Assembly (NCBI GenBank): GCA_963663165.1
Contig: OY760175.1
Location: 1,696,001 to 1,760,000 of the forward strand
Source of the DNA: an uncultured Desulfospira sp.
GTDB lineage: Bacteria; Desulfobacterota; Desulfobacteria; Desulfobacterales; Desulfobacteraceae
Direction of reading: 5' to 3'
Length of the DNA: 64,000 nucleotides
Under the pieces are notes generated by a model. It worked only from the letters and a program-made list of their open reading frames with translations. It was not told the origin of the DNA and did no database searches. Shown here one piece after another: positions 9,252 through 64,000 of the stretch (position 1 is its first letter; each line of letters starts with the position of its first letter). The position numbers and the translations under genes were made by a program.

Positions 9252-11765
9252 TTAGACAAGGCCAACCCCGGCGTTAAAGGCGGCAAAGTTGCTGTCCCAT
9301 ATGGCCGGTTTGGGGCTGACGTTTTTCAAGGCCTTGAGCCAGACCTCTTTGGGTACCGTATTGAACGGGGCAAGGGTGCTCAATGCCCCGAGCATGACCA
9401 CGTTGGCGGTCTTGCCGGTGCTGTCCCCAAGGTCCATGGCTGTCTTTAAGACATCGGCCCGGACCACATCAAACCCCTTCAGGGCATTGTCAATGGCCTG
9501 GTCATCGGGGTAACCGGCCGGGTCCATGCCCTGGGGGACCACCTGGGTATTGGCCATGAGGACAGTGCCGCCGGGTTTGAGGCAGGAGATAAACCCGGGC
9601 CGCAGCACCTCGCTTTTTTCCATGACAATAAGGGCATCGGCCGTTCCGGGCAGGATCTGGGGACTGTAAACCTTGCCGCAGCCAAAGGTGGAGATAACCG
9701 GACCGCCCATCTGGGCCATGCCGTGGGTCTCGCCTTTAATCAGGTTCTGCTCGGCATAACCGGCCAGAAAGGCCATCTGGGCCAGAACCTTGCCGAAAAA
9801 CAGATTCCCCTGTCCCCCGACCCCGCGGATGGCAAGGCTGAGGCGGTCCGGGAGGCTTGAGGGGTCAATTTCCGGCAGATTGATTTCTCCAGGCGCTGCT
9901 TGGGCAGCCGGTCCGGCAGATGAGGCCATGGCGGACTTGGCCGCCTGGATCTCTTCGGGTGTGGCCACCCGGATGGCGCCGGCAGGGCACATCTGCAGGC
10001 AGGCCGGGGTGTTGGACACACAGCCGGAACACAGGTTGTTCCAGACCGGGTGGTTGTTTTCATCATATTCAATGCCCGCACAGAAATTGCAGATCCCGCA
10101 CTCTTTGCACTTGTCCGCATCCACAACCATTTTCTGTCCGTAAGCGGTCTTGGGCACCCGGCGGATGCAGGTTCCGTTAATGACAATGATGGTGAATTCG
10201 CCGCCTTCGGCTTTTTTCAAGGCATCCTTTAAGGCGGCCCGGATGGCCTTAAGGTCATAGGCGCCCACTTCAACCACACTTGCGCCCTCGCCCCGCAATG
10301 CATTGGCCAGGTTAAATTTATTTTCCTGCCCTTTATAATTGACCGGGGAGGCCGGGGAGTTCTGGCCGCCGGTCATGGCGGTCCACTCGTTGTCCAGCAC
10401 CACCTTGACCCCCGGGCTGTTCCGGTAAATGGCGTTCCGGGTGGCATCCATGCCCGAATGGCATTCGGTGGAATCCCCGATGACGGAGATGCACTTTGCC
10501 GCTGATTCCGGCTTGGAGGCGACATAACCGGTCCGTTTGCTTTCGCTGGCACCCATGCCCACGCCCGTGTCCATGGCGTTGAGAAAATACAGCAGGGCAT
10601 TGCAGCCGATATCCCCGAAAATGGCCTCAAGGGCTCCCCGGTTTTTCATTTTGGAAACCACCGCGCCAAACAGGGCATAGGGGCACCCCGCACAGATCAT
10701 GGGCGGCCGGGGCACCGGGGCTGTGGATACGGCAACAGATTCGGTCTGATGGCCAAGAAAGTCTGCCACCAGGGCCGGCGTGTATTCGGTAAGGGTGCTT
10801 TGGAATGGCTTTCCAATGACTGAAAGCCCTGCCTGCATACAGGCTTCCTCAATAAAGCGGAACCCGTCCTCAACCACATAGACATCCCCGTCAATGCGGT
10901 CACAAAAAGACTTGATCAGGTTCATGGGCAGGGGATTGGTGAATGCCAGGGACAGAATGTCCAGGTCCGGTTCAAACCGCTCCCTGTACTCTTCCACAAA
11001 AAGGGTGTTGACCCCGTGGGTAATAACCCCTTTTTTGCCCGCCCCTTTGGTCCACTGGTTTAAGGGGGATTCTTCCACCATTTTGATCAGCCCCGGCACC
11101 CGTTCAGCCTGGATCCGGTCGTAACTGGCCCTGGCCATGACCGGCAGGCAGTTAAAGGCATGCAGGTCCCCCATTTTCACAGGATCACGGCGCTGCTCTG
11201 CCATGAGGGAGATCAATCCTTCACTGTGGCACAGGATGCCTGAGGCCAGGATGACCGTGGAGGTGTTGAACTGCCTGGCAATTTTTACGGCAACGGCGGC
11301 GGCTTCGTGCATTTCCTGGTGGTTCCGGGGTTCAAATACCGGCATAAAGCAGCTTTTGAACAGATATTTGGGGTCAATAACATGCTGGGTGGAACTCGGG
11401 GTAAAATCCGAGGCCAAAAAATAGATCAGGGCGCCCCGTTCCTGGGTAAAACAGGATGCACTGGTCACGATATCCCCGGCCTGGAACAGTCCCGGGATTT
11501 TCATGGTGACCACACAGTCCCGGCCGGCCAGGGAGTGGCCGTGCCCCACGCCGGCAGCCACGGCTTCACTCACGGACCAGTTGGCCTCGATCAGGTCCTG
11601 AACCTGGGAAAGCCCCCGGTCCAGCACTTCGGTACTCGGCGTGCCCGGATACCCGTCAACCGCATGAATGCCGGCCCTGACACAGCCGACGGCAAAGGCG
11701 ATATTGCCCTGGAGGACATGGGGTTTGCCGGGTTTGTCCGTACACATTTGTCTGATGGCGTTCAT
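9252..11765 (-). CDS. Indolepyruvate:ferredoxin oxidoreductase, fused alpha-beta (IorAB) polypeptide
   Basis: GYPGTPSTE, RPPMICAGCP, GDIGC, GDS...DN-W-TAMTGGQ, ferredoxin CKECGIC...CLQMCP, followed by an IorB-type domain GVGGQG...ETHGMAQMGG in the same frame. Confidence 0.9.
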   Translation of the reverse strand: MNAIRQMCTDKPGKPHVLQGNIAFAVGCVRAGIHAVDGYPGTPSTEVLDRGLSQVQDLIEANWSVSEAVAAGVGHGHSLAGRDCVVTMKIPGLFQAGDIVTSASCFTQERGALIYFLASDFTPSSTQHVIDPKYLFKSCFMPVFEPRNHQEMHEAAAVAVKIARQFNTSTVILASGILCHSEGLISLMAEQRRDPVKMGDLHAFNCLPVMARASYDRIQAERVPGLIKMVEESPLNQWTKGAGKKGVITHGVNTLFVEEYRERFEPDLDILSLAFTNPLPMNLIKSFCDRIDGDVYVVEDGFRFIEEACMQAGLSVIGKPFQSTLTEYTPALVADFLGHQTESVAVSTAPVPRPPMICAGCPYALFGAVVSKMKNRGALEAIFGDIGCNALLYFLNAMDTGVGMGASESKRTGYVASKPESAAKCISVIGDSTECHSGMDATRNAIYRNSPGVKVVLDNEWTAMTGGQNSPASPVNYKGQENKFNLANALRGEGASVVEVGAYDLKAIRAALKDALKKAEGGEFTIIVINGTCIRRVPKTAYGQKMVVDADKCKECGICNFCAGIEYDENNHPVWNNLCSGCVSNTPACLQMCPAGAIRVATPEEIQAAKSAMASSAGPAAQAAPGEINLPEIDPSSLPDRLSLAIRGVGGQGNLFFGKVLAQMAFLAGYAEQNLIKGETHGMAQMGGPVISTFGCGKVYSPQILPGTADALIVMEKSEVLRPGFISCLKPGGTVLMANTQVVPQGMDPAGYPDDQAIDNALKGFDVVRADVLKTAMDLGDSTGKTANVVMLGALSTLAPFNTVPKEVWLKALKNVSPKPAIWDSNFAAFNAGVGLV

Positions 11766-53570: not shown

Positions 53571-54734
53571 CTAATTTGTCTCCCAGAAAGGCGACATCTG
53601 CCTTAACCGTTCAATAATGGGCACCATGGCCTCAACAATGTCATCCATTTCCTGGCGGGTATTGTAATGGGACAGGGAAAACCGGATGGTCCCGTGAAGG
53701 GATTTCTGGGGGACCTTCATGGCCATGAGCACATGGGAGGGATCAAGAGAGCCCGAGGTGCAGGCCGATCCGGAAGAGGCGCAGATGCCTTTCTGATCCA
53801 GGAGCATGAGAATGGACTCCCCCTCTACGGCGTCAAAGCCGATGGACAGGGTATTGGGCAGCCGGTGGTCCATATCCCCGTTCACGGAACAGGCAGGAAT
53901 GGTGTCAAGCAGCCGGTTCTGGAGACAATCCCTTAACTCCTTAACCCGGGTGTTCATTTCATCTAAATTCTCTTTGGCCAGTTGGGCGGCCTTGCCAAGG
54001 CCGATAATGGAAACCGTGTTTTCCGTTCCGCCCCGCCGGCCCTTTTCCTGGTGGCCGCCAATAAGAAATGGCGTGAACTTGAGGCCGTTTTTGATATACA
54101 GCACACCAATGCCCTTGGGGGCATGAATTTTATGCCCGGACAAGGAGAGCATGTCCACACCGGTTTTCTTCACGTCAATGGGCACCTTGCCCGTGGCCTG
54201 GACCGCGTCGGTATGAAATAAAATCCCTTTTTGAGCCGCTTCTTTAGCAATCTCGTCAATGGGGAAAATCACGCCTGTTTCGTTGTTGGCCCACATGACG
54301 GATACGATGGCGGTATTCTCAGACATGCTTGAATAGAGCAGGTCCAGGTCCAGCCGCCCCCTGCTGTCCACGGGCACCAGGGTAATCTCATACCCCCGGT
54401 TTCTTTTTAGGTGTTTACACAGGTTAAGAATGGCCGGATGCTCAACCGCTGTGGTAATGATATGCTTTTTTTCGGGGAAAGCGGCAAGGGCCGTGTTAAT
54501 GGCCGCATTATCACTCTCCGTGCCGCAGCTGGTAAACACGATCTCATCCGGGTCCGCATTGATCAGGCCGGCCACATGTTCTCTGGCCTGTTTAACCTTT
54601 TGGGCCACCTGGTCCCCGAAGGTATACATGGAAGACGGGTTCCCGTACATCTCGCCGAAATAAGGAAGCATTGTCTCAATGACCTCATCAGCGACTTTGG
54701 TGGTGGCGTTGTTATCCGTGTAAATAATAGTCAT
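53571..54734 (-). CDS. nifS: Cysteine desulfurase NifS
   Basis: DNNATT, TSCGTESDN, NNETG, HTDAVQ, SGHK (PLP Lys), SSGSACTSGS. Confidence 0.95.
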   Translation of the reverse strand: MTIIYTDNNATTKVADEVIETMLPYFGEMYGNPSSMYTFGDQVAQKVKQAREHVAGLINADPDEIVFTSCGTESDNAAINTALAAFPEKKHIITTAVEHPAILNLCKHLKRNRGYEITLVPVDSRGRLDLDLLYSSMSENTAIVSVMWANNETGVIFPIDEIAKEAAQKGILFHTDAVQATGKVPIDVKKTGVDMLSLSGHKIHAPKGIGVLYIKNGLKFTPFLIGGHQEKGRRGGTENTVSIIGLGKAAQLAKENLDEMNTRVKELRDCLQNRLLDTIPACSVNGDMDHRLPNTLSIGFDAVEGESILMLLDQKGICASSGSACTSGSLDPSHVLMAMKVPQKSLHGTIRFSLSHYNTRQEMDDIVEAMVPIIERLRQMSPFWETN

Positions 54735-54750
54735 GGGTCACCTTCTCGGG

Positions 54751-55323
54751 TTATGCCAGGCCTTGAGCAGCCCGGGTGGATTCAATGATCTGTTCGATCC
54801 GGTCAATGCATTTGCCGCAGCCGCCGCCAGCCTTAAGATAGTTGGTGACATCTTCGGTGGTCTTAAGGTCGTTGTTTTTGACGGCATCCTTAATTTCAAG
54901 ATCGGTCACATCAAAACATTCACAGACCAGGTCTCCTGGTTTCTCAAGGATCTGAACGCCCCGGTAATTGGCAATGGCCTTTTTCAAGGCGGCATGGCCC
55001 ATGACCGAGCAGTGCATTTTGGCTTTGGGAAGCCCCCCTAAATAATCGGCAATATCGTCGTTGGTCACCTTGATAGCCTCATCCAGGGTCATGCCCTTGA
55101 TGATTTCCGTCAGGGCCGATGAGGACGCCACGGCACTGGCGCAGCCAAATGTCATGAAAGAGGCATTGATGATTCTTTCATTTTCATTCACCTTTAAATA
55201 TAAGGTCAGGGCATCCCCGCAATTGAGGGACCCGGTCTCTCCCACCGCATTTGCATCTCTCATGACCCCTACGTTCCTGGGGTTCAAAAAATGGTCTTTG
55301 ACCTGATCAGAGTAATTCCACAT
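54751..55323 (-). CDS. nifU: Fe-S scaffold NifU (IscU-like plus BFD-like domains, no C-terminal Nfu domain)
   Basis: HFLNPRNVG, CGD, FGCASA, LPKAKMHCS, VCECF...GGCGKC. Ends at 190 aa. Confidence 0.9.
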   Translation of the reverse strand: MWNYSDQVKDHFLNPRNVGVMRDANAVGETGSLNCGDALTLYLKVNENERIINASFMTFGCASAVASSSALTEIIKGMTLDEAIKVTNDDIADYLGGLPKAKMHCSVMGHAALKKAIANYRGVQILEKPGDLVCECFDVTDLEIKDAVKNNDLKTTEDVTNYLKAGGGCGKCIDRIEQIIESTRAAQGLA

Positions 55324-55615
55324 GACAGCCTCCCTTATTGATCTGTTTTACGGCCTGCCCCGGGAATCGTGTAACAGGCCTGATGATTTTGCCATGATTT
55401 AAAATACTACATGGTGGTAGATTGTCAAATAGAAACAATGGAGACCGGAAGAAGGGAAACCGCCAGACCGGAAACGGGAGACCGGATGTTACGGACCCTT
55501 TAGGCTGTCTTTTTTTCCATGGTGTAAAAAAACCCGACAAAATGCGGTGCCATTCCCTGCATTGTTTTCCATTCATTTCATTGAATTACAAGCAGTTAAA
55601 CAAAATCCCCCCCAT

Positions 55616-55631
55616 TGGTATGGTCATTGCT
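55616..55631 (+). promoter_or_regulatory. sigma54 (-24/-12) promoter of the aspA-hydF operon
   Basis: TGGTAT-GGTCA-TTGCT fits TGGYAY-N5-TTGCW with GG-N10-GC spacing. Confidence 0.7.
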
Positions 55632-55770
55632 CATACAGGTTTTATCAGCCGTCCGGTACAAGGATATCCCGGCCGGGCCAAGATGAACCGGCAGATTGGA
55701 CGTTTGGGGCATTAAACTTTTAAATTAGGTTGACAAGAGGCAATGACTTATCATATGACCACCGTAACGG

Positions 55771-55838
55771 AAAACAGCCACGAAGGCTTAAAGGTTATCC
55801 CCAGGGATAGGTTTAGGCTTTTGTGGCTGTTTTTTTTT
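55771..55838 (+). terminator. Long leader hairpin followed by a U-tract (attenuator/terminator candidate)
   Basis: AAAACAGCCACGAAGGCTTAAA pairs with TTTAGGCTTTTGTGGCTGTTTT (three G-U pairs), apical TATCCC-CA-GGGATA, then a T-run. Confidence 0.6.
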
Positions 55839-55945
55839 GCGCCGTTGCCCACCCCTTGCAAAAGGGTGCCAAAAAAAGGGAAGGGCCATGGCCCGGTCTG
55901 CCCGTTTGAACTTGATGAAGCACTGTTTTTTACAGGATATCAACC

Positions 55946-57382
55946 ATGAGCAGCAACCAGACATTAATGCGCCGGGAGCGTGACACCTTAGGAGAACTCG
56001 ATGTTCCGGCCACGGCCCTTTACGGCATCCATACCATGCGGGCCATCCACAATTTCCCCTTTTCAACGGCCCGCCTTCCCGAACCGTTCATAAAGGCCAT
56101 GGGACAGGTAAAACAGGCCTGTGCCCTGACGAACCAGACCCTTGGCTATCTTGATCCAAATCCGGGCGAGGCCGTTATCACCGCCTGCAAAGAGCTTGAA
56201 AAAGGCGATCTGTCAGACCACATTCTGGTGGACCCCTTCCAGGGCGGGGCCGGCACCTCCACCAACATGAACGTTAACGAGGTCATTGCCAACCGGGCCG
56301 AACAACTCCTGGGCGGGAATCTAGGCGAATACCGGATGGTTCACCCCATTCATCACGTCAATATGCACCAGTCCACCAATGATGTGTATCCCACGGCTCT
56401 GAAGGTAGCAGCGCTTAAGCTGCTGGTGACCCTGGAAAACGAGATAGAAAAGCTGCAACAGGCCCTCCAGGAAAAGGAGGGGGAATTTCGCAGCATTGTA
56501 AAGGTGGCCAGAACCGAGCTTGTGGACGCCGTTCCCATGACCCTGGGCATGACCTTTGGGGCCTTTGCCGATGCCGCGGCCCGTGACCGCTGGCGTATTT
56601 TCAAGAGCCGGGAACGGATCAAACGGGTCAATCTTGGGGGAACCGCCATTGGTACGGGGCTGGGCGCGCCCAGGGACTATGTGCTGAAGGTGACTGAAAC
56701 CCTGCGGAATATCACCGCTTTACCGGTATCCCGTGCTGAAAATCTCATCGACGCCACCCAGAATATGGACCCTTTGGTAGAAGTTTCGGGCATGCTCAAG
56801 GCCTATGCGGCCAATCTGCTCAAACTGTCCTCGGATTTAAGGCTGCTGTCCAGCGGGCCTGAAACCGGCATCGGGGAGATCATTCTTGACCCCTTGCAGG
56901 CGGGATCTTCCATTATGGCCGGCAAGATCAATCCGGTCATGCCCGAAGCCGTGACCCAGGTGGCGATCAAGGTGATGGGCAACGACCAGACCATCGCCTT
57001 TGCCGCCGGCATGGGCCAGCTTGAACTCAATCACCTCCTGCCGCTGTTAACCCACACTTTTTTAGAATCACTGATGCTGCTGATCAGCGCCACAAAAGGG
57101 CTTTCCACACACTGTATCCCTAAAATCCAAGCCAACCCAAAACAATGTCTGGCCCATTTAGAACGAAGCCATGCGCTGGCCACGGTCCTGGTCCCGGCAC
57201 TGGGATATGCCCGGGTGGAGGAGATCGTCAACGCCGCAAGGGCATCGGGCAGATCCATAAAAGAGGAGATCATCCATCAGCATCTGGCATCACGGGAAAT
57301 TGTCGATACGCTGCTGTCGCCCAAACGGCTGTGTAAACTCGGGTTTACGCCAAATGAATTTGACGGGGTGAACCGGCCATGA
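55946..57382 (+). CDS. aspA: Aspartate ammonia-lyase
   Basis: RRERDTLGE, YGIHT-RA, QGGAGTSTNMN, HVNMHQSTND, GSSIMAGKINPV fumarase/aspartase signature. Confidence 0.9.
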   Translation: MSSNQTLMRRERDTLGELDVPATALYGIHTMRAIHNFPFSTARLPEPFIKAMGQVKQACALTNQTLGYLDPNPGEAVITACKELEKGDLSDHILVDPFQGGAGTSTNMNVNEVIANRAEQLLGGNLGEYRMVHPIHHVNMHQSTNDVYPTALKVAALKLLVTLENEIEKLQQALQEKEGEFRSIVKVARTELVDAVPMTLGMTFGAFADAAARDRWRIFKSRERIKRVNLGGTAIGTGLGAPRDYVLKVTETLRNITALPVSRAENLIDATQNMDPLVEVSGMLKAYAANLLKLSSDLRLLSSGPETGIGEIILDPLQAGSSIMAGKINPVMPEAVTQVAIKVMGNDQTIAFAAGMGQLELNHLLPLLTHTFLESLMLLISATKGLSTHCIPKIQANPKQCLAHLERSHALATVLVPALGYARVEEIVNAARASGRSIKEEIIHQHLASREIVDTLLSPKRLCKLGFTPNEFDGVNRP

Positions 57383-57424
57383 CCCCTGTGGCAGGACTTA
57401 TAAAAACACCGGCTGAAAGGAGAA

Positions 57425-58636
57425 ATGCTTATGTCCAGTAAGGCCCCCCGGGGTGTACGCCTTGTTATTGCACTGGTGGGCCGGCGCAATGCCGGAAAAT
57501 CATCCCTTGTCAACGCCATTGCCGGGCAGGAGATTGCCATCGTTTCCGATCACCCGGGCACGACCACGGACCCGGTGGCCAAGCCCTACGAACTGCTGCC
57601 CTTAGGGCCTGTCACCTTTTATGATACGGCAGGCCTGGATGACGAAGGGGAACTTGGAGACCTGCGGGTCAGGGCCACCCGGAAAATCCTCTGGCGGTCG
57701 GATGTGGCCGTGGTGGTCATTTCAGAGCAAGGCATCACCCATTATGAAAAAAAGATCGTTGATGAAATCCGTGATCTGGACATTCCCTTCCTCATGGTCT
57801 TTAACAAGAGCGATCTGGCCAGGCCTTCAGACCCGGATCTTGCCTTTTGCAGGGAAAACAGCCTGCCTTATCTGATCATCAGTGCAAAAGACAATGTGAA
57901 TATTACGGCAGTAAAAGAGGCAATTATCGACATTGCCCCGCCGGAAATAAAGCGGGAGCCTTTGCTGGCCGGCGACCTCATCAATGAGGGCGACTGGGTG
58001 GTCTGTGTGGTTCCCATTGATCTGGCAGCCCCCAAAGGCAGGCTCATCCTGCCCCAGGTTCAGGTTCTTCGTGAAATCCTGGACTGTGATGCCTTGGGGC
58101 TCATGGTCAAGGAAAAAGAAATTGATGCGGCCCTTTCCGGCCTGCATCGAAAACCGGCCCTGGTGATTGCCGATTCCCAGGTGGTGATGAGCGTGGCCGG
58201 GGACGTGCCCGAAGATATCCCCTTAACCACTTTTTCCATTCTGTTTGCCCGGTACAAGGGGGACATCACAAAGCTTACGGCCGGTGCGGCCGCCATAGAC
58301 GATCTTAAGGACGGGGACCGGGTCCTTATTGCCGAGGCCTGTTCCCACCATCCAGTGGCCGACGACATCGGCCGGGTCAAGATTCCCCGCTGGATCACCC
58401 AGTACACGGGCAGGGATTTGAACTTTGATGTCTATTCCGGCCACGATTTTCCTGAACATCTGGAAAAGTACCGGCTGGCCGTTCATTGCGGGGGATGCAT
58501 GATCAACCGCGTTGAAATGCTGCGCAGAATCAAGGAGTGCCGCCGCCGAGGGGTGGCCATTACCAACTTTGGCCTGGCCATCTCAAAGGTCCAGGGGGTG
58601 CTGGACAGGGTCATAAAGCCCTTTGGAGGGATATAA
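57425..58636 (+). CDS. hydF: [FeFe]-hydrogenase H-cluster maturation GTPase HydF
   Basis: GRRNAGKSS, GTTTDPV, DTAG, NKSD, PIDLAAPKGRLILPQVQ, and EACSHH...HCGGC Fe-S motif. Confidence 0.95.
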   Translation: MLMSSKAPRGVRLVIALVGRRNAGKSSLVNAIAGQEIAIVSDHPGTTTDPVAKPYELLPLGPVTFYDTAGLDDEGELGDLRVRATRKILWRSDVAVVVISEQGITHYEKKIVDEIRDLDIPFLMVFNKSDLARPSDPDLAFCRENSLPYLIISAKDNVNITAVKEAIIDIAPPEIKREPLLAGDLINEGDWVVCVVPIDLAAPKGRLILPQVQVLREILDCDALGLMVKEKEIDAALSGLHRKPALVIADSQVVMSVAGDVPEDIPLTTFSILFARYKGDITKLTAGAAAIDDLKDGDRVLIAEACSHHPVADDIGRVKIPRWITQYTGRDLNFDVYSGHDFPEHLEKYRLAVHCGGCMINRVEMLRRIKECRRRGVAITNFGLAISKVQGVLDRVIKPFGGI

Positions 58637-60309
58637 TGCACCTTCAGGAAAACGGCATTACCTTCGCAGCCCCCCCCTTGAACCGGCTGCCGTCGGTTCA
58701 CAGGAAAATTTTCTGTCCGGGAAACACCTTGATTGTCTGCGTGCAGCTGGCAGACGGGCGGGTGGAAGATGCCTGGAGTACCGGCCGGATGATGCGCAGC
58801 ATGAACCTTTTGCTGCAGGTTATTTCAGATGACCCCGGCCGGCCCTGTTTTGTCCGGCGCGCCCATTGCCTGTGCAACGACGGACATGCCCTGGCTGCGG
58901 TTCGCGCATTAGAGGACCTGGCCGGGATAGCGCCGCCCCGCAGCGCGCTTCTGGTGCGCAGCCTGGTTCAGGCCCTTCGATGTATCCAGGAGCACCTGCT
59001 TCACTTTTATCAATTTCACCTGTCCAACTGGGTCTGTTTAGGGCCGGCCCTGGGGGCTGATCCCGGTAAAACCGCCCGGCTGGCAGATCCATTGAACCGG
59101 GGACCTGATTATTTCAGGCAGGTCCAGGAGCGGTTGCGGCCCCTGGCTGAAAATAAAGGGATCAATGGATTTAATGACCGTTTCTGTGATCATCCGGATT
59201 ACCGTGGAGCCGACGAATTCCATCTGCTGGTTCACAGCCACAGCCTGGAATCCCTTCAAATACAAAGTCTTCTGAACAAGGCCCTGGGGCTGCTTGGCTG
59301 TAAAAACGGCCGGCATCCGGCCTATCAGACAGGCGGGCTGTCCCCGGACATGAACCTTGGACAGGCCGTGCTGCAGCAGCTGCACGGCCTGGTTCGCCAC
59401 TGCCGGGATTTTATTAACACCTCTTTTCTTACCGATCTTGAACAGATGGCCAGGGCCTACCCCCATTGGAAGGACCTGGCCATTGGCAGCACGTTTCTTT
59501 GCCTGGGCGATTTTGCCCGACCCCATGACAGGGGCCTGCTGTTTCCCAACGGCATTACCCGGACGGCAGGCAAAAATCAAATCGTTGATCCGGCCCGGCC
59601 CGATCGGGTCACGGAAGAACACACCCCTAAATGGAAGGACCTGGACACAGAACGGTACCGGCTCAACTTCGGCAGACACGGCCCGGTATTTTTCTGGAAC
59701 AAAGGAAATTTGCCTTGGATTTTTGCTCCCCGCCACGGCAAAGATGCCTGTGAGGCGGGATCCCTTGCCCGGGTGATGGGGGCCTTTACCCAGGGCCGGC
59801 AGGAAGTGTGTAAAGCCGTAAATAACAGCCTGAAGGCCTCCGGCCTTTTGCCGGGGGATATGAACTGTGCACTGGGGAGGCTGTTGTCCCGGGGCATTGA
59901 ATCTTCGGTTCTTTCAAAGGCCGCTTTGGACTGGCTGGATGAACTCAAGACTGAACCGGTCGGCAAACGGGCATTGATGAACCAGAACTTTCGTCTGCCC
60001 CGTACCGGTGTGGGAACCGGAAAGGTGGAAGTGCCAAGGGGATCTTTGATCCATACCATCCAAATGGACAAACACAGAATCATCCGCCATGACTGCCTTA
60101 TCCCGTCCATGTGGAATTTTTCCGTCCGGGATTCAAAGGGCCGGCGCGGCCCCCTGGAACAGGCGCTGCTGGGGACACCGGTGAGAAACCCTGATCATCC
60201 CCTGGAACTTTTACGCATTGTCCACGCCTTTGACCCCTGCAACCCCTGCCATGTGGTGGTCCAGGATGCGGACACCGGAAGGGTCACCCTGTCAGGCCCC
60301 GGGACGTGA
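58636..60309 (+). CDS. Divergent [NiFe]-hydrogenase large-subunit-like protein
   Basis: HALAAVRALED, HLLHFYQFH, APRH, CEAGSLAR, EVPRGSLIH, PSMWNFSVRD-KG-RGPLEQALLGTP, ELLRIVHAFDPCNPC. ATG overlaps the hydF TAA (TAATG). Confidence 0.85.
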   Translation: MHLQENGITFAAPPLNRLPSVHRKIFCPGNTLIVCVQLADGRVEDAWSTGRMMRSMNLLLQVISDDPGRPCFVRRAHCLCNDGHALAAVRALEDLAGIAPPRSALLVRSLVQALRCIQEHLLHFYQFHLSNWVCLGPALGADPGKTARLADPLNRGPDYFRQVQERLRPLAENKGINGFNDRFCDHPDYRGADEFHLLVHSHSLESLQIQSLLNKALGLLGCKNGRHPAYQTGGLSPDMNLGQAVLQQLHGLVRHCRDFINTSFLTDLEQMARAYPHWKDLAIGSTFLCLGDFARPHDRGLLFPNGITRTAGKNQIVDPARPDRVTEEHTPKWKDLDTERYRLNFGRHGPVFFWNKGNLPWIFAPRHGKDACEAGSLARVMGAFTQGRQEVCKAVNNSLKASGLLPGDMNCALGRLLSRGIESSVLSKAALDWLDELKTEPVGKRALMNQNFRLPRTGVGTGKVEVPRGSLIHTIQMDKHRIIRHDCLIPSMWNFSVRDSKGRRGPLEQALLGTPVRNPDHPLELLRIVHAFDPCNPCHVVVQDADTGRVTLSGPGT

Positions 60310-60340
60310 CAAGAAACCGGAAAAAAAGATAAAAGAAGCT

Positions 60341-61351
60341 ATGAACCGGAACACCATATTAGATGCACTTAAAGACCAAACCGGACAAACCGGCCTGTTT
60401 GCGGCAGCCGATCGGGTGCGCAAAGAAAACCTTGGCGACACCGCCCAGCTGCGCGGCGTGGTCCATTTCTCAAATTACTGCCGGTGTAATGACCTTTATT
60501 GCGGCCTGCTTAAAAACAACACCCAATGCCGGCGGTTTCGCATGAGTGAGGATAAGATTGTCGACACGGCCCTGGCCATTGCCCGGGCCGGGTTAAAAAC
60601 CGTGGTGCTTCAGTCGGGTGAGGACCTTTACTACACCCGGCCCATGATCAGTTCTGTGATTGAACGAATCCTGGATAACGCCGATGTGGCCGTTACCTTA
60701 AGCTTGGGAATGCGGTCCAGAGACGACTTTAAGGCCTTTCGGGACGCCGGGGCCCAGCGGTATCTCATGAAGCACGAAACCATGAACCCCGTTCTCTATT
60801 CCAGGATGCGCCCGGGCCAGCAGCTTGCGGACCGGCTTAAAACCATCCATGAGTTGCGGGAACTCGGATACCAGGTGGGGGTGGGCAATATCGTGGGCCT
60901 GCCCGGCCAGACCCTTTCAGATCTGTGCGAGGACATCCTTTTTTTCCAGGATTTCCAGCCGGACATGATTAATATCGGCCCGTTTATTCCCCATGCCCAG
61001 ACCGTGCTTAAGGATGAACCGGCCGGGGACATGGACCTGATGCTGCGGGTGTTTGCCTTAACCCGGATGGTGACCGGCAACACCCATATTGCTGCGGCCA
61101 ATACCGTGGCCACCCTGGACCCGGAACAGGGGCAGTACCGGGCCTTGACTCAGGGCGGCGCCAATGTAATGATGCCCAATTGCAACCCGTTTCAAAAAAG
61201 CCAAAAGGATAAAATTGAATACGAGTTTCAGATAACCACCCATAAACGCTACGTTTCCGTTAACGAGGCCCGAAGCGTCCTTGCCCGGGCCAACCGGACC
61301 GTGGACAAGGGAAAGGGACACTCCCTTAAAATACGAGGAGAACAGGTTTGA
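60341..61351 (+). CDS. HydE-like radical SAM protein with altered cluster motif
   Basis: RGVVHFSNYCRCNDLYCGL, TVVLQSGED, VTLSLG, RYLMKHET, VGLPGQT, IGPFIPH, GANVMMPN. ATG 60341. Confidence 0.85.
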   Translation: MNRNTILDALKDQTGQTGLFAAADRVRKENLGDTAQLRGVVHFSNYCRCNDLYCGLLKNNTQCRRFRMSEDKIVDTALAIARAGLKTVVLQSGEDLYYTRPMISSVIERILDNADVAVTLSLGMRSRDDFKAFRDAGAQRYLMKHETMNPVLYSRMRPGQQLADRLKTIHELRELGYQVGVGNIVGLPGQTLSDLCEDILFFQDFQPDMINIGPFIPHAQTVLKDEPAGDMDLMLRVFALTRMVTGNTHIAAANTVATLDPEQGQYRALTQGGANVMMPNCNPFQKSQKDKIEYEFQITTHKRYVSVNEARSVLARANRTVDKGKGHSLKIRGEQV

Positions 61352-62103
61352 TTAAGGTAGCCATATACGGTAAGGGGGGCATTGGCAAATCCACCGTGGC
61401 CTCATGCATATCCGCCGCTTTAGGGATACAGGGAACCCATGTCATGCAGATCGGCTGCGACCCCAAAACCGATTCCACCATCAATCTTCTGGGGGGAACC
61501 CCGCCGCCGCCCATCCTGCAGTATCTTCAGGAAAACGGGCGGCCCGACACCCTGGACGCCATTGCCAGACGGGGCTTCGGCAATACAATCTGCATGGAGG
61601 TAGGCGGCCCGACCCCGGGTGTGGGCTGTTTTGGCCGGGGCATGCTCACCGCTTTTGAGCTTTTGGACGACATGGGCGCCTATGATGTTTACCAGCCGGA
61701 CGTGGTGCTTTACGACATTCTGGCCGATGTGGTGTGCGGCGGCATTGCCGTGCCCATGCGCGAAGGATTTGCCGATAAGGTCTGTATTGTCACCTCAGGT
61801 GAAAAAATGGCCCTGCTGGCCGCCCAGAACATTATCCTGGCCCTGCGCAATTTTGCAGACCGCAACTATGCTGAACTCGGCGGGCTGATCCTCAACTGCC
61901 GGGATATGGAAAACGAAGCGGAACGGGTAAAGGCCTTTGCCCAGAAAATGGAAACCGCCATTTTAGGGGTGATTCCCCGGGACAGGGCCATCCACACATT
62001 TGAAGAAGAAGGCAAGACCATTGTTGAGGCAGACCGTACCCTGCCCACCTCGGCCCGGTTTTTTGAACTGGCCAAAACCATTGCCGGGTTTGGGGACCTT
62101 TAA
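61348..62103 (+). CDS. NifH-like (nitrogenase iron protein family) ATPase/reductase
   Basis: YGKGGIGKST, GCDPKTDST, GGPTPGVGCFGRG, DVVCGG. TTG start overlaps the upstream TGA. Confidence 0.9.
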   Translation: MIKVAIYGKGGIGKSTVASCISAALGIQGTHVMQIGCDPKTDSTINLLGGTPPPPILQYLQENGRPDTLDAIARRGFGNTICMEVGGPTPGVGCFGRGMLTAFELLDDMGAYDVYQPDVVLYDILADVVCGGIAVPMREGFADKVCIVTSGEKMALLAAQNIILALRNFADRNYAELGGLILNCRDMENEAERVKAFAQKMETAILGVIPRDRAIHTFEEEGKTIVEADRTLPTSARFFELAKTIAGFGDL

Positions 62104-62148
62104 AACATTGCTCAAGGATTGAACAAACACGACCGTAAGGATATTTGT

Positions 62149-63447
62149 ATGGACCTGGATCATGCCCGCATCAGGGTTGAAAACCTGCGTGAGAAATCGG
62201 ATTTTCCCTTTGCCCCCCTGGAAGGGGTGGGCCCTAACCTGGCCGGCTGGGGCGTCATCGAGACCTGCCTGCTGCTGCCGGAGTCGGTGGCGGTCATGGT
62301 CGGGCCTTCGGCCTGCCTGCGCCATTCAGCCTTTATGGCCCATGCCAGGGGATTTACAGAACGGTTTTATATGCTGTGCGTGCCTGAACTTGACATGGCC
62401 ATGGGCAATCACCTGTCCGTGGTGGAAAAGGGCATCAGGGACATTGCAAAAACGCGGCAGGAAAAGGTAATTTTCCTGATTGTGGGGTGCCCGGATTATA
62501 TTCTGGGTACGGATCTTACCGGGGTCATCCGGCGCCTGGAAGCCGCCACCGGGAAAAAGATCATCCCCGGGGCCATGGCACCCATTACCATCGGGCTTAA
62601 ATCATCCCCCTTTGCCTCGGCCTATACCTCGTTTTTCGAGTTCCTTAAGGACACACCCCGGGGTCAAGATGACCGGGTCCTCAACCTTTTGGGCACATTT
62701 ATGCCCCTGTCGGATTCCGGGGAGCTTTATCAGGTTCTGGCCGCCGCCGGCATGGACACGGTACTTCAAATCCCCCTGTGCCGTGATTTAACACAATTCT
62801 CGCGCATGGCCCATGGCCGGGCCTCAGTGGTCCTGCACCCGCTGGCCAACGGCCTTTCCGGCAAAATGGAACAAGAGATGGGCATTCCGGCCTGTTTTGC
62901 GCCAACGTCCTATGGATTTTCCATTATCCGGGAACAGTATGAGAAAATCAGTGAGGCTGTGGGACAGCCCCTTGATACCGGGCCTTATGAACAGGCGGCC
63001 CGGCAGGCGGCGGCCCCCTTGCTGGAGATGCTTTACGGCAAATCGGCCGCCGTGGGATGCAGTATCAACGGCAGCCCCTTTGAGCTTTCCCTGTTTCTGG
63101 TCCAAAGCGGTGTCAATGTGGAAGCCGTTTTTGCCCGGGGCGCCATCAAGCCCTATGAATGGGACCTGATCCAGCAATTGCGTAAGGTAAAACCGGACAT
63201 CCATGTGTACAACGCATCCCATCCGGCCCTGTGCGGACACACCCAACCTTTTGACACCGTGGAACTGGCCTATGGCGTTGATGCGGGTATTTTTTGTGCC
63301 CAGGCCGCCAATGTGCCCCTGTCCCGCTACCAGGAACAAACATACGGGTTTGAAGCCGCTGTCTGGATGCTTGAACAAAGCTGCCGGGCCCTGACCCATC
63401 CGGTGGACAACTATGAGTGGATATACAAACACAACTTTCTCATATGA
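62149..63447 (+). CDS. Nitrogenase component-1 type oxidoreductase subunit (NifD/NifE-like fold)
   Basis: MVGPSACLRH, ELDMAMG, GCPDYILGTD, LNLLG. Follows the NifH-like gene. ATG 62149 after AAGGA. Confidence 0.8.
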   Translation: MDLDHARIRVENLREKSDFPFAPLEGVGPNLAGWGVIETCLLLPESVAVMVGPSACLRHSAFMAHARGFTERFYMLCVPELDMAMGNHLSVVEKGIRDIAKTRQEKVIFLIVGCPDYILGTDLTGVIRRLEAATGKKIIPGAMAPITIGLKSSPFASAYTSFFEFLKDTPRGQDDRVLNLLGTFMPLSDSGELYQVLAAAGMDTVLQIPLCRDLTQFSRMAHGRASVVLHPLANGLSGKMEQEMGIPACFAPTSYGFSIIREQYEKISEAVGQPLDTGPYEQAARQAAAPLLEMLYGKSAAVGCSINGSPFELSLFLVQSGVNVEAVFARGAIKPYEWDLIQQLRKVKPDIHVYNASHPALCGHTQPFDTVELAYGVDAGIFCAQAANVPLSRYQEQTYGFEAAVWMLEQSCRALTHPVDNYEWIYKHNFLI

Positions 63448-63457
63448 GGGATCACCC

Positions 63458-64000
63458 ATGAAAGCATATCATCATCTCCTTCCCCTGGCCACGGGCTATT
63501 TCGGGGTCAGTTCCGCACTTTACAACTTTGGCGGCCTGGTGGTCATCTATGGACCTGCAGGCGGGGCCTGGCACATCAATATCGAGGATGAACCGCGCTG
63601 GTACCGGGGGCCGGCCACAGTGGTGGGGGCGGGCCTGCTGGAAATGGACGTGATCCTGGGCAATGATAACAAATTTATCACCCATATCGTTGAGACCGCC
63701 AAGGGGTTGAATTCCCCTTTTGTGGCCCTGTCAGGCACCCCCATCTCAGAGATTATCGGTACCGATCTTAAGGGATTTGTGCGGAGTGTTGAAAGCCGTA
63801 CCGGCATCCCGGTGTTCATGGTGCCCACGGCCGGTTCCGAACCCTATCCCGAGGGGGCGTCCAAGGCGCTTCTGGCCCTTTCCGACAAAATCATGGATCC
63901 GGATGCCCCTAAGCAGCCCAAAGGGGTTAACATCCTCGGGGCCATTCATCTTTCCACGGGCCGGCAGGCCCATATCGAACCGTTGCTTAACGCCATCCGG
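63458..64000 (+). CDS. Second nitrogenase component-1 type subunit (partial, runs off the window; absent from the ORF track)
   Basis: Open frame from ATG 63458: MKAYHHLLPLATGYFGVSSALYNFGGLVVIYGPAGG...DEPRWY...LLEMDVILG...GTPISEIIGTDLKG...GVNILG. Confidence 0.8.
   Translation, partial: MKAYHHLLPLATGYFGVSSALYNFGGLVVIYGPAGGAWHINIEDEPRWYRGPATVVGAGLLEMDVILGNDNKFITHIVETAKGLNSPFVALSGTPISEIIGTDLKGFVRSVESRTGIPVFMVPTAGSEPYPEGASKALLALSDKIMDPDAPKQPKGVNILGAIHLSTGRQAHIEPLLNAIR

Follow-up and report, generated by a model that had tools for sequence, protein, structure and literature searches.

In the textbook account, [FeFe] hydrogenases cannot acquire their H-cluster without the maturases HydE, HydF, and HydG, and all of the CO and CN comes from tyrosine by way of HydG, a radical S-adenosylmethionine (SAM) tyrosine lyase that makes an Fe(CO)2(CN) synthon for the cluster. 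Yet there are many organisms whose [FeFe] hydrogenases are active, or seem to be functional, and in which one or more of the three proteins are missing. In [NiFe] hydrogenases, the immature large subunit (LSU) takes up Fe(CN)2CO from HypC/HypD before nickel is inserted and the C terminus is cleaved. There are also LSU homologs without NiFe ligands that have a non-hydrogenase role, as we propose for the protein described here; these homologs, NuoD/Nqo4 of complex I and the Ehr-type proteins, come from group 4, have lost all four Cys residues, and reside in membrane complexes. The gene in this report, X, lies in a 64,000-nucleotide stretch of an uncultured Desulfospira sp. (contig OY760175.1, positions 1,696,001 to 1,760,000), called the window below. 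Unlike the group 4 homologs, its product is of group 1 origin, has lost just one of the four Cys residues, retains the CN/CO pocket, and is encoded in a maturation operon. X is part of a conserved, so far undescribed module whose most likely role is to take the place of HydG when [FeFe] hydrogenases are matured.

Several published statements bear on such a replacement. A passage of a 2024 Cell paper (PMC11216029) holds that alternative H-cluster maturation probably exists in archaea and some eukaryotes and names no parts for it, and a passage of another article mentions a heliobacterial genome with hydA and no hydEFG (PMC9147875). A third source reports, in the sections concerned, Clostridium acetogens with hypCDEF and no hypAB, and points to earlier experiments where HydF produced in the absence of HydG brought about trace activation, which increased on addition of CO or CN (PMC9431212). 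The words HydE, HypC, and Desulfovibrio have 0 occurrences in the main text of a 2026 review of nitrogenase-like systems (PMC13474568). Literature searches, whose coverage stopped short of most subscription journals and supplements, found no published description of the X cluster.

X runs from an ATG at position 58636 to a stop codon at 60307-60309 as 557 codons without interruption. Its ATG shares one base with the TAA stop of hydF (TAATG), and a GGAGG lies 6 nt 5' of it. The product matches Pfam PF00374 over profile positions 17-507 of 508 (320 bits, cut-off 25.8; E 3.4e-95), and its closest solved structures are the group-1 LSUs of Desulfovibrio gigas and D. fructosovorans (phmmer, E ~1e-76). 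An AlphaFold model made with 52 relatives as input (pLDDT 87.5, pTM 0.90) led Foldseek to the D. gigas and D. fructosovorans LSU structures as well, with a TM score of ~0.8; residues 62-68 and 73-77 of the model, just on the N-terminal side of the H-C-L-C motif, have pLDDT <50. A preliminary description made from the window's sequence alone had called X an uninterrupted open reading frame (ORF) of about 557 amino acids (aa) and a full-length LSU homolog, and the ORF call, the Pfam and Protein Data Bank matches, and the model all agree. X falls under the cut-offs of the families for known LSUs: among the equivalogs NiFeSe, Hyd-1, and Hyd-2 the best was NCBIfam NF033181 (248 bits, cut-off 600), and NF007778 gave 204 bits (cut-off 969).

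The group-1 periplasmic LSUs of D. gigas, D. fructosovorans, and D. vulgaris Miyazaki (1yq9, 2frv, 1frf, and 4u9h) share their fold with X over its full length, and motif positions were read from residue-by-residue alignments of X to 1yq9 and to the canonical sequence P0057. X retains equivalents of Cys68, Cys530, Cys533, His72, Arg463, Pro485, and Ser486 of D. gigas, the last three being Arg468, Pro490, and Ser491 of X. In the L1 motif, RxCGxCxxxH reads RAHCLCNDGH, so that Cys65, Gly66, and Cys68 of D. gigas correspond to His77, Cys78, and Cys80; X and its relatives thus have His or another residue in place of Cys65, and a new Cys one position later. The L2 motif reads DPCNPCHVV, with Cys530 and Cys533 kept as Cys535 and Cys538 and the terminal His aligned with Val541, beyond which X continues for a 16-residue tail. 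The EVPRG motif (Arg468) and the PSxWN motif (Pro490, Ser491, Trp493, and Asn494) are both kept. DPxTRxEGH is unrecognizable at the N terminus, where R-x-E-G-H gives way to C-x-G-N in a stretch ending in FCPGN; the register of Cys27 relative to the proton-relay Glu is uncertain by one residue, which places it one or two positions before that Glu. Finally, R-G-x-E (R-G-L-E in D. gigas) is R-S-M-N in X. On each of these motifs, including the C-terminal extension, the alignments agree with what the preliminary description had read.

For the D. gigas LSU we take Cys65 to be a nickel-only ligand, Cys68 and Cys533 to be the Fe-bridging Cys residues, the Glu of R-x-E-G-H to be the proton relay, Arg463 and Ser486 to contact CN, and the Mg site to be formed by the Glu of R-G-x-E and the C-terminal His. 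A word-indexed search found 55 relatives of X at 39-99% identity, after which identity falls to 25%. Those with source names are all from Desulfovibrionaceae, among them Pseudodesulfovibrio nedwellii, P. methanolicus, Desulfolutivibrio sulfoxidireducens, and Desulfobaculum xiamenense, and all are annotated as nickel-dependent hydrogenase large subunits. The family alignment comprises 52 sequences and excludes P0002, which is 99% identical to the query, and the partial sequences P0046, P0055, and P0056. Cys80, Cys535, His84, Arg468, Pro490, Trp493, and Asn30 are each present in 52/52, Ser491 and Cys78 in 50/52, Cys538 and Cys27 in 49/52, and Gly29 in 46/52. The residues that we propose as acceptors of an iron unit are kept in nearly all members (Cys80 and Arg468 in 52/52, Ser491 in 50/52, and Cys538 in 49/52). 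His77 is found in 43/52, the rest having A, N, Q, C, Y, or S, with Cys in just one. No Glu is conserved in the N-terminal motif region, and R-G-x-E reads R-N-M-N in the family. Position 541, the site of the canonical cleavage His/Arg, is V in 42 sequences, L in 5, R in 4, and M in 1, so that the canonical residue is missing from 48/52. The tail has a conserved motif, E-D-x-D-T-G-R, and it aligns with the tails of the canonical precursors P0069 and P0070, which start downstream of D-P-C-x-x-C-x-x-H. Judging from these alignments, the best-kept positions of X would be those that hold or contact Fe(CN)2CO in true enzymes, and the lost ones those that serve nickel, proton transfer, and proteolytic finishing.

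The altered HCLC and DPCNPCH motifs, which the preliminary description had seen in X alone, are conserved in its homologs, and the full set of Cys27, His77, Cys78, Cys80, Cys535, and Cys538 occurs in 40/52. Compared with its two nearest orthologs, X has ratios of nonsynonymous to synonymous substitution (dN/dS) of 0.35 and 0.28. X is not a pseudogene, because the altered motifs are conserved under purifying selection; we tried that reading and rejected it on the conserved motif changes and the dN/dS values. X is all the same the least constrained gene of the operon, its six neighbors having dN/dS of 0.09-0.28, and this suits a carrier better than a catalyst.

A quick maximum-likelihood search with a midpoint root, run on the 52 X-family sequences, 20 canonical group-1 sequences, and 3 distant ones, placed the X family in one clade (Shimodaira-Hasegawa-like approximate likelihood ratio test, 100), separated from the canonical group-1 LSUs by a long branch. 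In the same tree, the clade that holds the window's X is nested among other X-family members. A basal clade of the family (P0047, P0048, P0050, and P0051) keeps Arg at the cleavage position (D-P-C-N-A-C-x-x-R) and has no His77, and two of its four members are also without Cys27; this clade could represent an intermediate stage of evolution. A profile run against 1.84 billion representatives returned 8 full-length X-family representatives with scores of at least 617 bits, plus fragments; the next full-length matches score at most 401 bits, all have canonical motifs, and no forms intermediate between canonical LSUs and X appeared in that search.

These data bear on the idea that X has no role in maturation and is either a paralog of the genome's group-1 LSU on its way to decay or a regulatory H2 sensor. 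The altered ligand and proton-relay motifs would suit it, as would the split copy in one metagenome-assembled genome (MAG). We nevertheless regard it as very improbable, given the six-residue Cys/His set common to 40/52 sequences, the dN/dS values, a gene order strictly conserved across two bacterial families, the lack of any attached small subunit, kinase, or regulator, and the sharp gap in scores between the family and the canonical LSUs. The sensor option and the alternative-metal-enzyme option, both raised in the preliminary description, found no specific support. In the MAG with the split copy (L026, genome G169), X lies in two frames, 10001-11041 and 11023-11625, through a frameshift or an assembly error; this genome has no HydF match.

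A Pfam scan of the X operon found no Oxidored_q6 small-subunit gene. The genome has four Oxidored_q6 matches, at 1.07, 3.15, 4.46, and 4.60 Mb, three of them adjoining other LSU genes and none near X, which is at 1.755 Mb. Neither did a small subunit turn up in the flanks of the related X loci examined, and no endopeptidase, hypA, or hypB gene was seen at the X cluster. X is a full-length member of the LSU superfamily that fails four defining features of a working hydrogenase. That it is not a conventional hydrogenase, as had been suspected together with the lack of a small subunit, is supported by the loss of all four: the small subunit, the Glu relay motif, one nickel-only Cys, and the cleavage-site His. 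The window's genome has three other LSU genes, each with its own small subunit; two of these (G000:C1 4597005-4598309 and 3148876-3150126; L003-L006) have one in-frame TGA each, as expected for selenocysteine-containing [NiFeSe] enzymes.

The genes around X include ones for [FeFe]-hydrogenase maturation. The operon has the order aspA-hydF-X-hydE'-nflH-nflD-nflK on one strand, and the identification of its neighbors as HydF and HydE types is upheld by family scores above both cut-offs (Table 1). The preliminary description was silent on the nitrogenase-like trio nflHDK, on the missing HydG, and on the link to Hyp proteins. A one-genome-per-species scan, with gene order read by tblastn with the window proteins, gave 24 loci (L016-L039) in which X has at least 39% identity. 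The carriers are Pseudodesulfovibrio, Desulfolutivibrio, Desulfocurvus, Desulfovibrio, and unclassified Desulfovibrionaceae, and two carrier MAGs, labelled Desulfospira and Desulfobacter, fall in the window's own family. hydE' is directly 3' of X in 22/22 related loci long enough to contain it (L018 and L038 stop before that point, and L034 holds just the C-terminal end of X). The full order X-hydE'-nflH-nflD-nflK is present in 23 loci, namely 19 of L016-L039, L086, L087, L088, and the window; contig ends cut L017, L029, and L030 before the order is complete.

Eight loci have aspA-hydF directly upstream of X (the window, L016, L020, L024, L031, L033, L036, and L039). Three others have hydF a few kb downstream on the opposite strand; in L023 and L027 it has aspA as a neighbor, and L019 breaks off within hydF. 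In all five genomes checked that have hydF away from X, hydF is adjoined by a second HydE-type gene; the one in G162 scores 198 bits, under the family cut-off. In compact-operon genomes, HydE' is the sole HydE-like gene (5/5 checked and the window's genome). At L036 the order aspA-hydF-X-hydE'-nflH-nflD-nflK-hypC is followed by a group A [FeFe] hydrogenase gene (TIGR02512, 488 bits; cut-off 406), and in G162, G166, and G177 a few kb at most separate the HydA gene from the cluster. As for aspA, ammonia-lyases in hyd clusters provide NH4+ for the dithiomethylamine bridge, according to a passage of PMC11736057, and this would explain its place in the operon.

The window's genome is a single 6.74-Mb contig rated 96.7% complete; it encodes two group A [FeFe] hydrogenases with intact H-cluster motifs, and both its sole HydF and its sole HydE-like gene are within the X operon. 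HydG is absent from this genome, in which the best TIGR03955 match (36.8 bits, cut-off 312) is HydE' itself. Among 23 other carrier genomes, HydA is found in 21 and HydG above the cut-off in one (G178). As a control, an evenly drawn sample of 151 Desulfovibrionaceae genomes was scored: HydF is in 69, HydG in 49, and the cluster in 18. Cluster presence was scored by an NflD query, with X itself confirmed in G290, G315, and G322; the X query P0028 (E <= 1e-110) missed 6 of the 18 NflD-positive genomes (G169, G173, G177, G179, G271, and G290). Of 17 HydF-positive genomes with the cluster, 14 are without HydG and 3 have it (G271, G315, and G322), and of 52 HydF-positive genomes without the cluster, 9 are without HydG and 43 have it. 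The Fisher odds ratio over these 69 genomes is 0.045, with a P value of 2e-6 that ignores kinship and overstates the association, because relatives are not independent. In the window's own GTDB family (161 genomes), HydF occurs in 7, of which 3 have the cluster and no HydG, 2 have HydG and no cluster, and 2 have neither. One locus of this family, L085, has a classical hydG-hydE-lyase-hydF layout adjoining HydA, and no cluster.

Hyp genes form a second link. hypC is directly 3' of nflK in 16 of 21 loci with room, hypD is present in 12, and hypE in 10; at L028 the three assignments were confirmed by TIGR00074 (60 bits, cut-off 48), TIGR00075 (435 bits, cut-off 193), and TIGR02124 (439 bits, cut-off 252). 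In five genomes checked, HypD is duplicated in all and HypC in four, with one copy of each in the cluster. Dedicated hypCDE genes beside an LSU gene are also the organization of true [NiFe] enzymes, and it could be argued that X is itself the end product, a new enzyme on the LSU fold whose Fe-CO/CN site is built by HypC/D/E, HydE', and NflHDK. Such an enzyme might hold a second metal on Cys27, His77, Cys78, and Cys535, and its linkage to HydF and HydA would reflect co-regulation or shared precursors. The family does have a further set of conserved Cys residues (Cys27, Cys222, Cys256, and Cys372, each in 48-49 of the 52), and a radical SAM gene beside nflHDK is usual for cofactor-bearing nitrogenase-like systems (a section of PMC13474568). 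We consider X unlikely to be an end product of this kind, since it would leave unexplained why carriers without HydG keep HydF and HydA and why HydA directly follows hypC at L036; moreover, no electron-transfer partner or small subunit is present, and X is the fastest-evolving gene of the operon, with variable putative ligands.

The interpretation that we favor, as somewhat more likely than not, is that X is a nickel-free, uncleaved LSU derivative that carries a Hyp-made Fe-CO/CN unit into HydE'/HydF, in a module that replaces HydG. X would then be a maturation factor and not a hydrogenase, and X-HydE'-NflH-NflD-NflK would build the [2Fe] part of the H-cluster with HydF and AspA. HypC, HypD, and HypE, with the cell's HypF, would put together an Fe-CN/CO unit in the way known from [NiFe] enzymes (HypCDEF function as described in part of PMC9431212), so that tyrosine would not be the source of the cyanide, which the Hyp route would supply. 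HypC would pass the unit to X, where Cys80 and Cys538 would hold it, with Arg468 and Ser491 touching the diatomic ligands. With no cleavage-site His and with its precursor tail retained, X would keep the site open, in a permanent precursor state. HydE' and NflHDK, an ATP-driven reductase, would convert or release the unit held by X; candidate jobs for NflHDK, all speculative, are CO formation, adjustment of the CO:CN ratio, iron reduction, and reductive C-S cleavage of the kind performed by its nearest solved relative. The product would go to HydF and then to HydA, and in compact operons the module may also stand in for canonical HydE. The flow from X to HydE'/HydF/HydA is likely the direction in carriers without HydG. 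Whether some sulfate reducers use the whole of this hybrid route, a union of three lineages of metal-site assembly, without HydG, in which HypC/D/E make the unit, X carries it, HydE' and NflHDK convert it, and HydF delivers it to HydA, seems to us evenly balanced. We observe the sequence features and their conservation, the synteny, the duplicated Hyp genes, and the lack of HydG; we infer that X binds Fe(CO)(CN), which way the unit moves, and what HydE' and NflHDK do chemically.

Among the options in the preliminary description, that of X as a scaffold for, or carrier of, an Fe(CO)x(CN)y unit is the best supported: the Fe-side residues are the best kept, and most Desulfovibrionaceae loci have dedicated hyp copies. 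The part that did not hold up is the source of the unit, which had been placed with the HydF/HydE-type neighbors; the Hyp machinery is the likelier supplier. An immature [NiFe] LSU precursor is a close parallel, since X likewise keeps a precursor-type tail and the Fe-side ligands and has hypC adjacent in most loci. The two would differ in that the precursor state of X is permanent, its iron unit is passed on, and no nickel enters. With HydG the module has no homology, and it comprises four to eight proteins rather than one; it is a proposed functional equivalent, found where HydG is missing and HydF, a HydE-type protein, and HydA are present.

Several findings weigh against a carrier in a HydG-replacing module. 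The Fe(CN)2(CO) unit has a CO:CN ratio unfit for the H-cluster, so that extra chemistry must be assumed. The putative ligands of X are not universal, His77 and Cys78 both being absent in P0004 and P0006 and Cys538 in 3/52. HydG occurs together with the cluster in G271, G315, G322, and the MAG G178, which indicates that both systems can coexist. Conversely, some HydF-positive genomes have neither HydG nor the cluster (9/52 in Desulfovibrionaceae, and G104 and G111 in the window's own family), so HydG loss is not always paired with X. In the same family, 17 of 24 HydA-positive genomes have neither a HydF nor a HydG match, which makes HydA alone a weak indicator of a need for these maturases. Last, hypC is absent at the cluster in the window, L016, L020, L031, and L087; the window's genome and two relatives have no cluster hyp gene and a single HypC and HypD elsewhere, the one hypC and one hypD of the window's genome being ~2.4 Mb from the operon.

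The window's family has a further arrangement that is free of HydG. L084 (G104:C1:174001-194000) contains hydE, a lyase gene, and hydF, and no HydG, X, or NflD; its neighbors are a NitT/TauT-type ABC transporter, a sigma-54 regulator, a group A [FeFe] hydrogenase, a HydN-like protein, and a formate-dehydrogenase-like subunit. G111 appears to have the same layout of hydE, lyase gene, and hydF, with neither HydG nor the cluster. A genome of the same genus, G112, rated 100% complete, is among the 17 that have HydA and are without HydF and HydG.

The coordinates of the operon genes and of the altered motifs of X are collected in Table 1.

Table 1. The X operon and the rewired motifs of X, in window coordinates
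Feature	Position	Strand	Evidence
aspA, aspartate ammonia-lyase, first operon gene	55946..57382	+	NF008909, 605 bits (cut-off 510)
hydF, H-cluster maturation GTPase/scaffold	57425..58636	+	TIGR03918, 548 bits (cut-off 326)
X, rewired [NiFe]-hydrogenase LSU homolog, 557 aa	58636..60309	+	uninterrupted ORF, PF00374, PDB matches
X, N-terminal F-C-P-G-N (residues 26-30) replacing the R-x-E-G-H proton-relay motif	58711..58725	+	alignment
X, L1 motif H-C-L-C-N-D-G-H (residues 77-84) replacing C-G-x-C-x-x-x-H	58864..58887	+	alignment
X, L2 motif D-P-C-N-P-C-H-V-V and retained precursor-type C-terminal tail (residues 533-557)	60232..60306	+	alignment
hydE', divergent HydE-type radical SAM, 336 aa from ATG	60341..61351	+	TIGR03956, 265 bits (cut-off 254.6)
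nflH, NifH-like ATPase/reductase	61348..62103	+	PF00142, E 1.3e-74; NifH nearest solved, 217 bits
nflD, NifD/NifE/BchN-like subunit	62119..63447	+	PF00148, E 8.5e-27
nflK, second NifD/K-like subunit, 414 aa, last operon gene	63413..64000 and beyond	+	PF00148, E 6.7e-28

nflK extends 657 bases past the end of the window, to genome position 1760657 (full ORF, L007:9413-10657), and a sulfatase gene lies downstream of it on the minus strand. A promoter and terminator scan of 55300-64000 gave counts no higher than in shuffled sequences. Upstream, and divergent from the operon, a nifS gene (TIGR03402, 610 bits) and a nifU-type scaffold gene occupy window positions 53571-55323 on the minus strand; the pair is in the same place in L016 and may be connected with the provision of iron or sulfur for maturation. 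An 89-aa ORF between nifU and aspA (55307-55576, minus strand) has no Pfam or NCBIfam match.

HydE' has 34-36% identity to canonical HydE and 69-90% to its own orthologs. Its Cys motif is C-R-C-N-D-L-Y-C in place of C-x3-C-x2-C: the second Cys of the classical motif is Asp in 21/21 orthologs, and a shifted Cys lies at +1 or +2 of the first one (C-R-C, C-C-R, C-C-K, or C-C-C) in 20/21, the exception being L036, which reads C-R-H. The canonical HydE proteins of two related genomes retain the classical C-x3-C-x2-C. A complex prediction for X with HydE' (score 0.00, mark 0.32) weighs neither way. NflH has the P-loop GKGGIGKS, and its Cys94 and Cys130 are conserved in 18/18, as are Cys66, Cys87, and Cys124 of NflD, which follow the NifE/BchN pattern; NflD has four more conserved Cys residues. 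The sole conserved Cys of NflK is Cys304, and the three Cys residues of NifK/NifN are absent. In features that can be read from the proteins, NflHDK is a nitrogenase-like two-component reductase, with a NifH-like ATPase and a NifD-like three-Cys subunit. Solved relatives are distant: the nearest chains to NflD are 9fmg and 9d9u (E 3.6e-11), and the nearest to NflK is NifE (E 2e-5). 9FMG features in a paper on the structure of methylthio-alkane reductase. MarBHDK, IsrBHDK, and NifB/NifEN, nitrogenase-like (NFL) systems of group IV, resemble the X module in having a radical SAM gene, a nifH-like gene, and two nifD/K-like genes in order. The X module differs from them in that its radical SAM partner is of the HydE type and not of the NifB type, and in that its genes stand together with those for hydrogenase maturation.

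Nitrogenase and its Fe protein can reduce CO2 to CO. One could propose that X and NflHDK generate diatomic ligands (CO, for example from CO2, or CN release at the X iron site) with low-potential electrons that NflH/NflDK would deliver at the expense of ATP, with HydE' acting as a NifB-like maturase of an NflDK cofactor. The altered Cys motif of HydE' and its low identity to canonical HydE would fit this, as would the intact P-loop and both cluster Cys residues of NflH and the three Cys residues of NflD; genomes with hydF apart from X keep a second, canonical-type HydE beside HydF (5/5 checked), and nitrogenase-like clusters as a rule include a radical SAM protein (a section of PMC13474568). 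We judge ligand generation by X and NflHDK to be quite unlikely, however. HydE' is the sole HydE-like gene in compact-operon genomes, so that it would have to do the job of HydE too, or that job would have to be bypassed, and there is no direct evidence for any substrate.

The X operon is a concrete and genetically testable candidate for an alternative maturation route, and there are named species among its carriers. If X and its partners do replace HydG, they would make up the first alternative route to the H-cluster whose parts can be named, and a nitrogenase-like enzyme and an LSU homolog would each have their first role in cofactor biosynthesis. A nitrogenase-like clade of unknown function would gain a role, and [FeFe] hydrogenases could be produced in other hosts with a set of tools that does not depend on tyrosine. 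Should X instead be the end product, it would be a new organometallic enzyme on the LSU fold. If the module does act in maturation, it would mean that [NiFe] and [FeFe] maturation, thought to be independent inventions, can be spliced.

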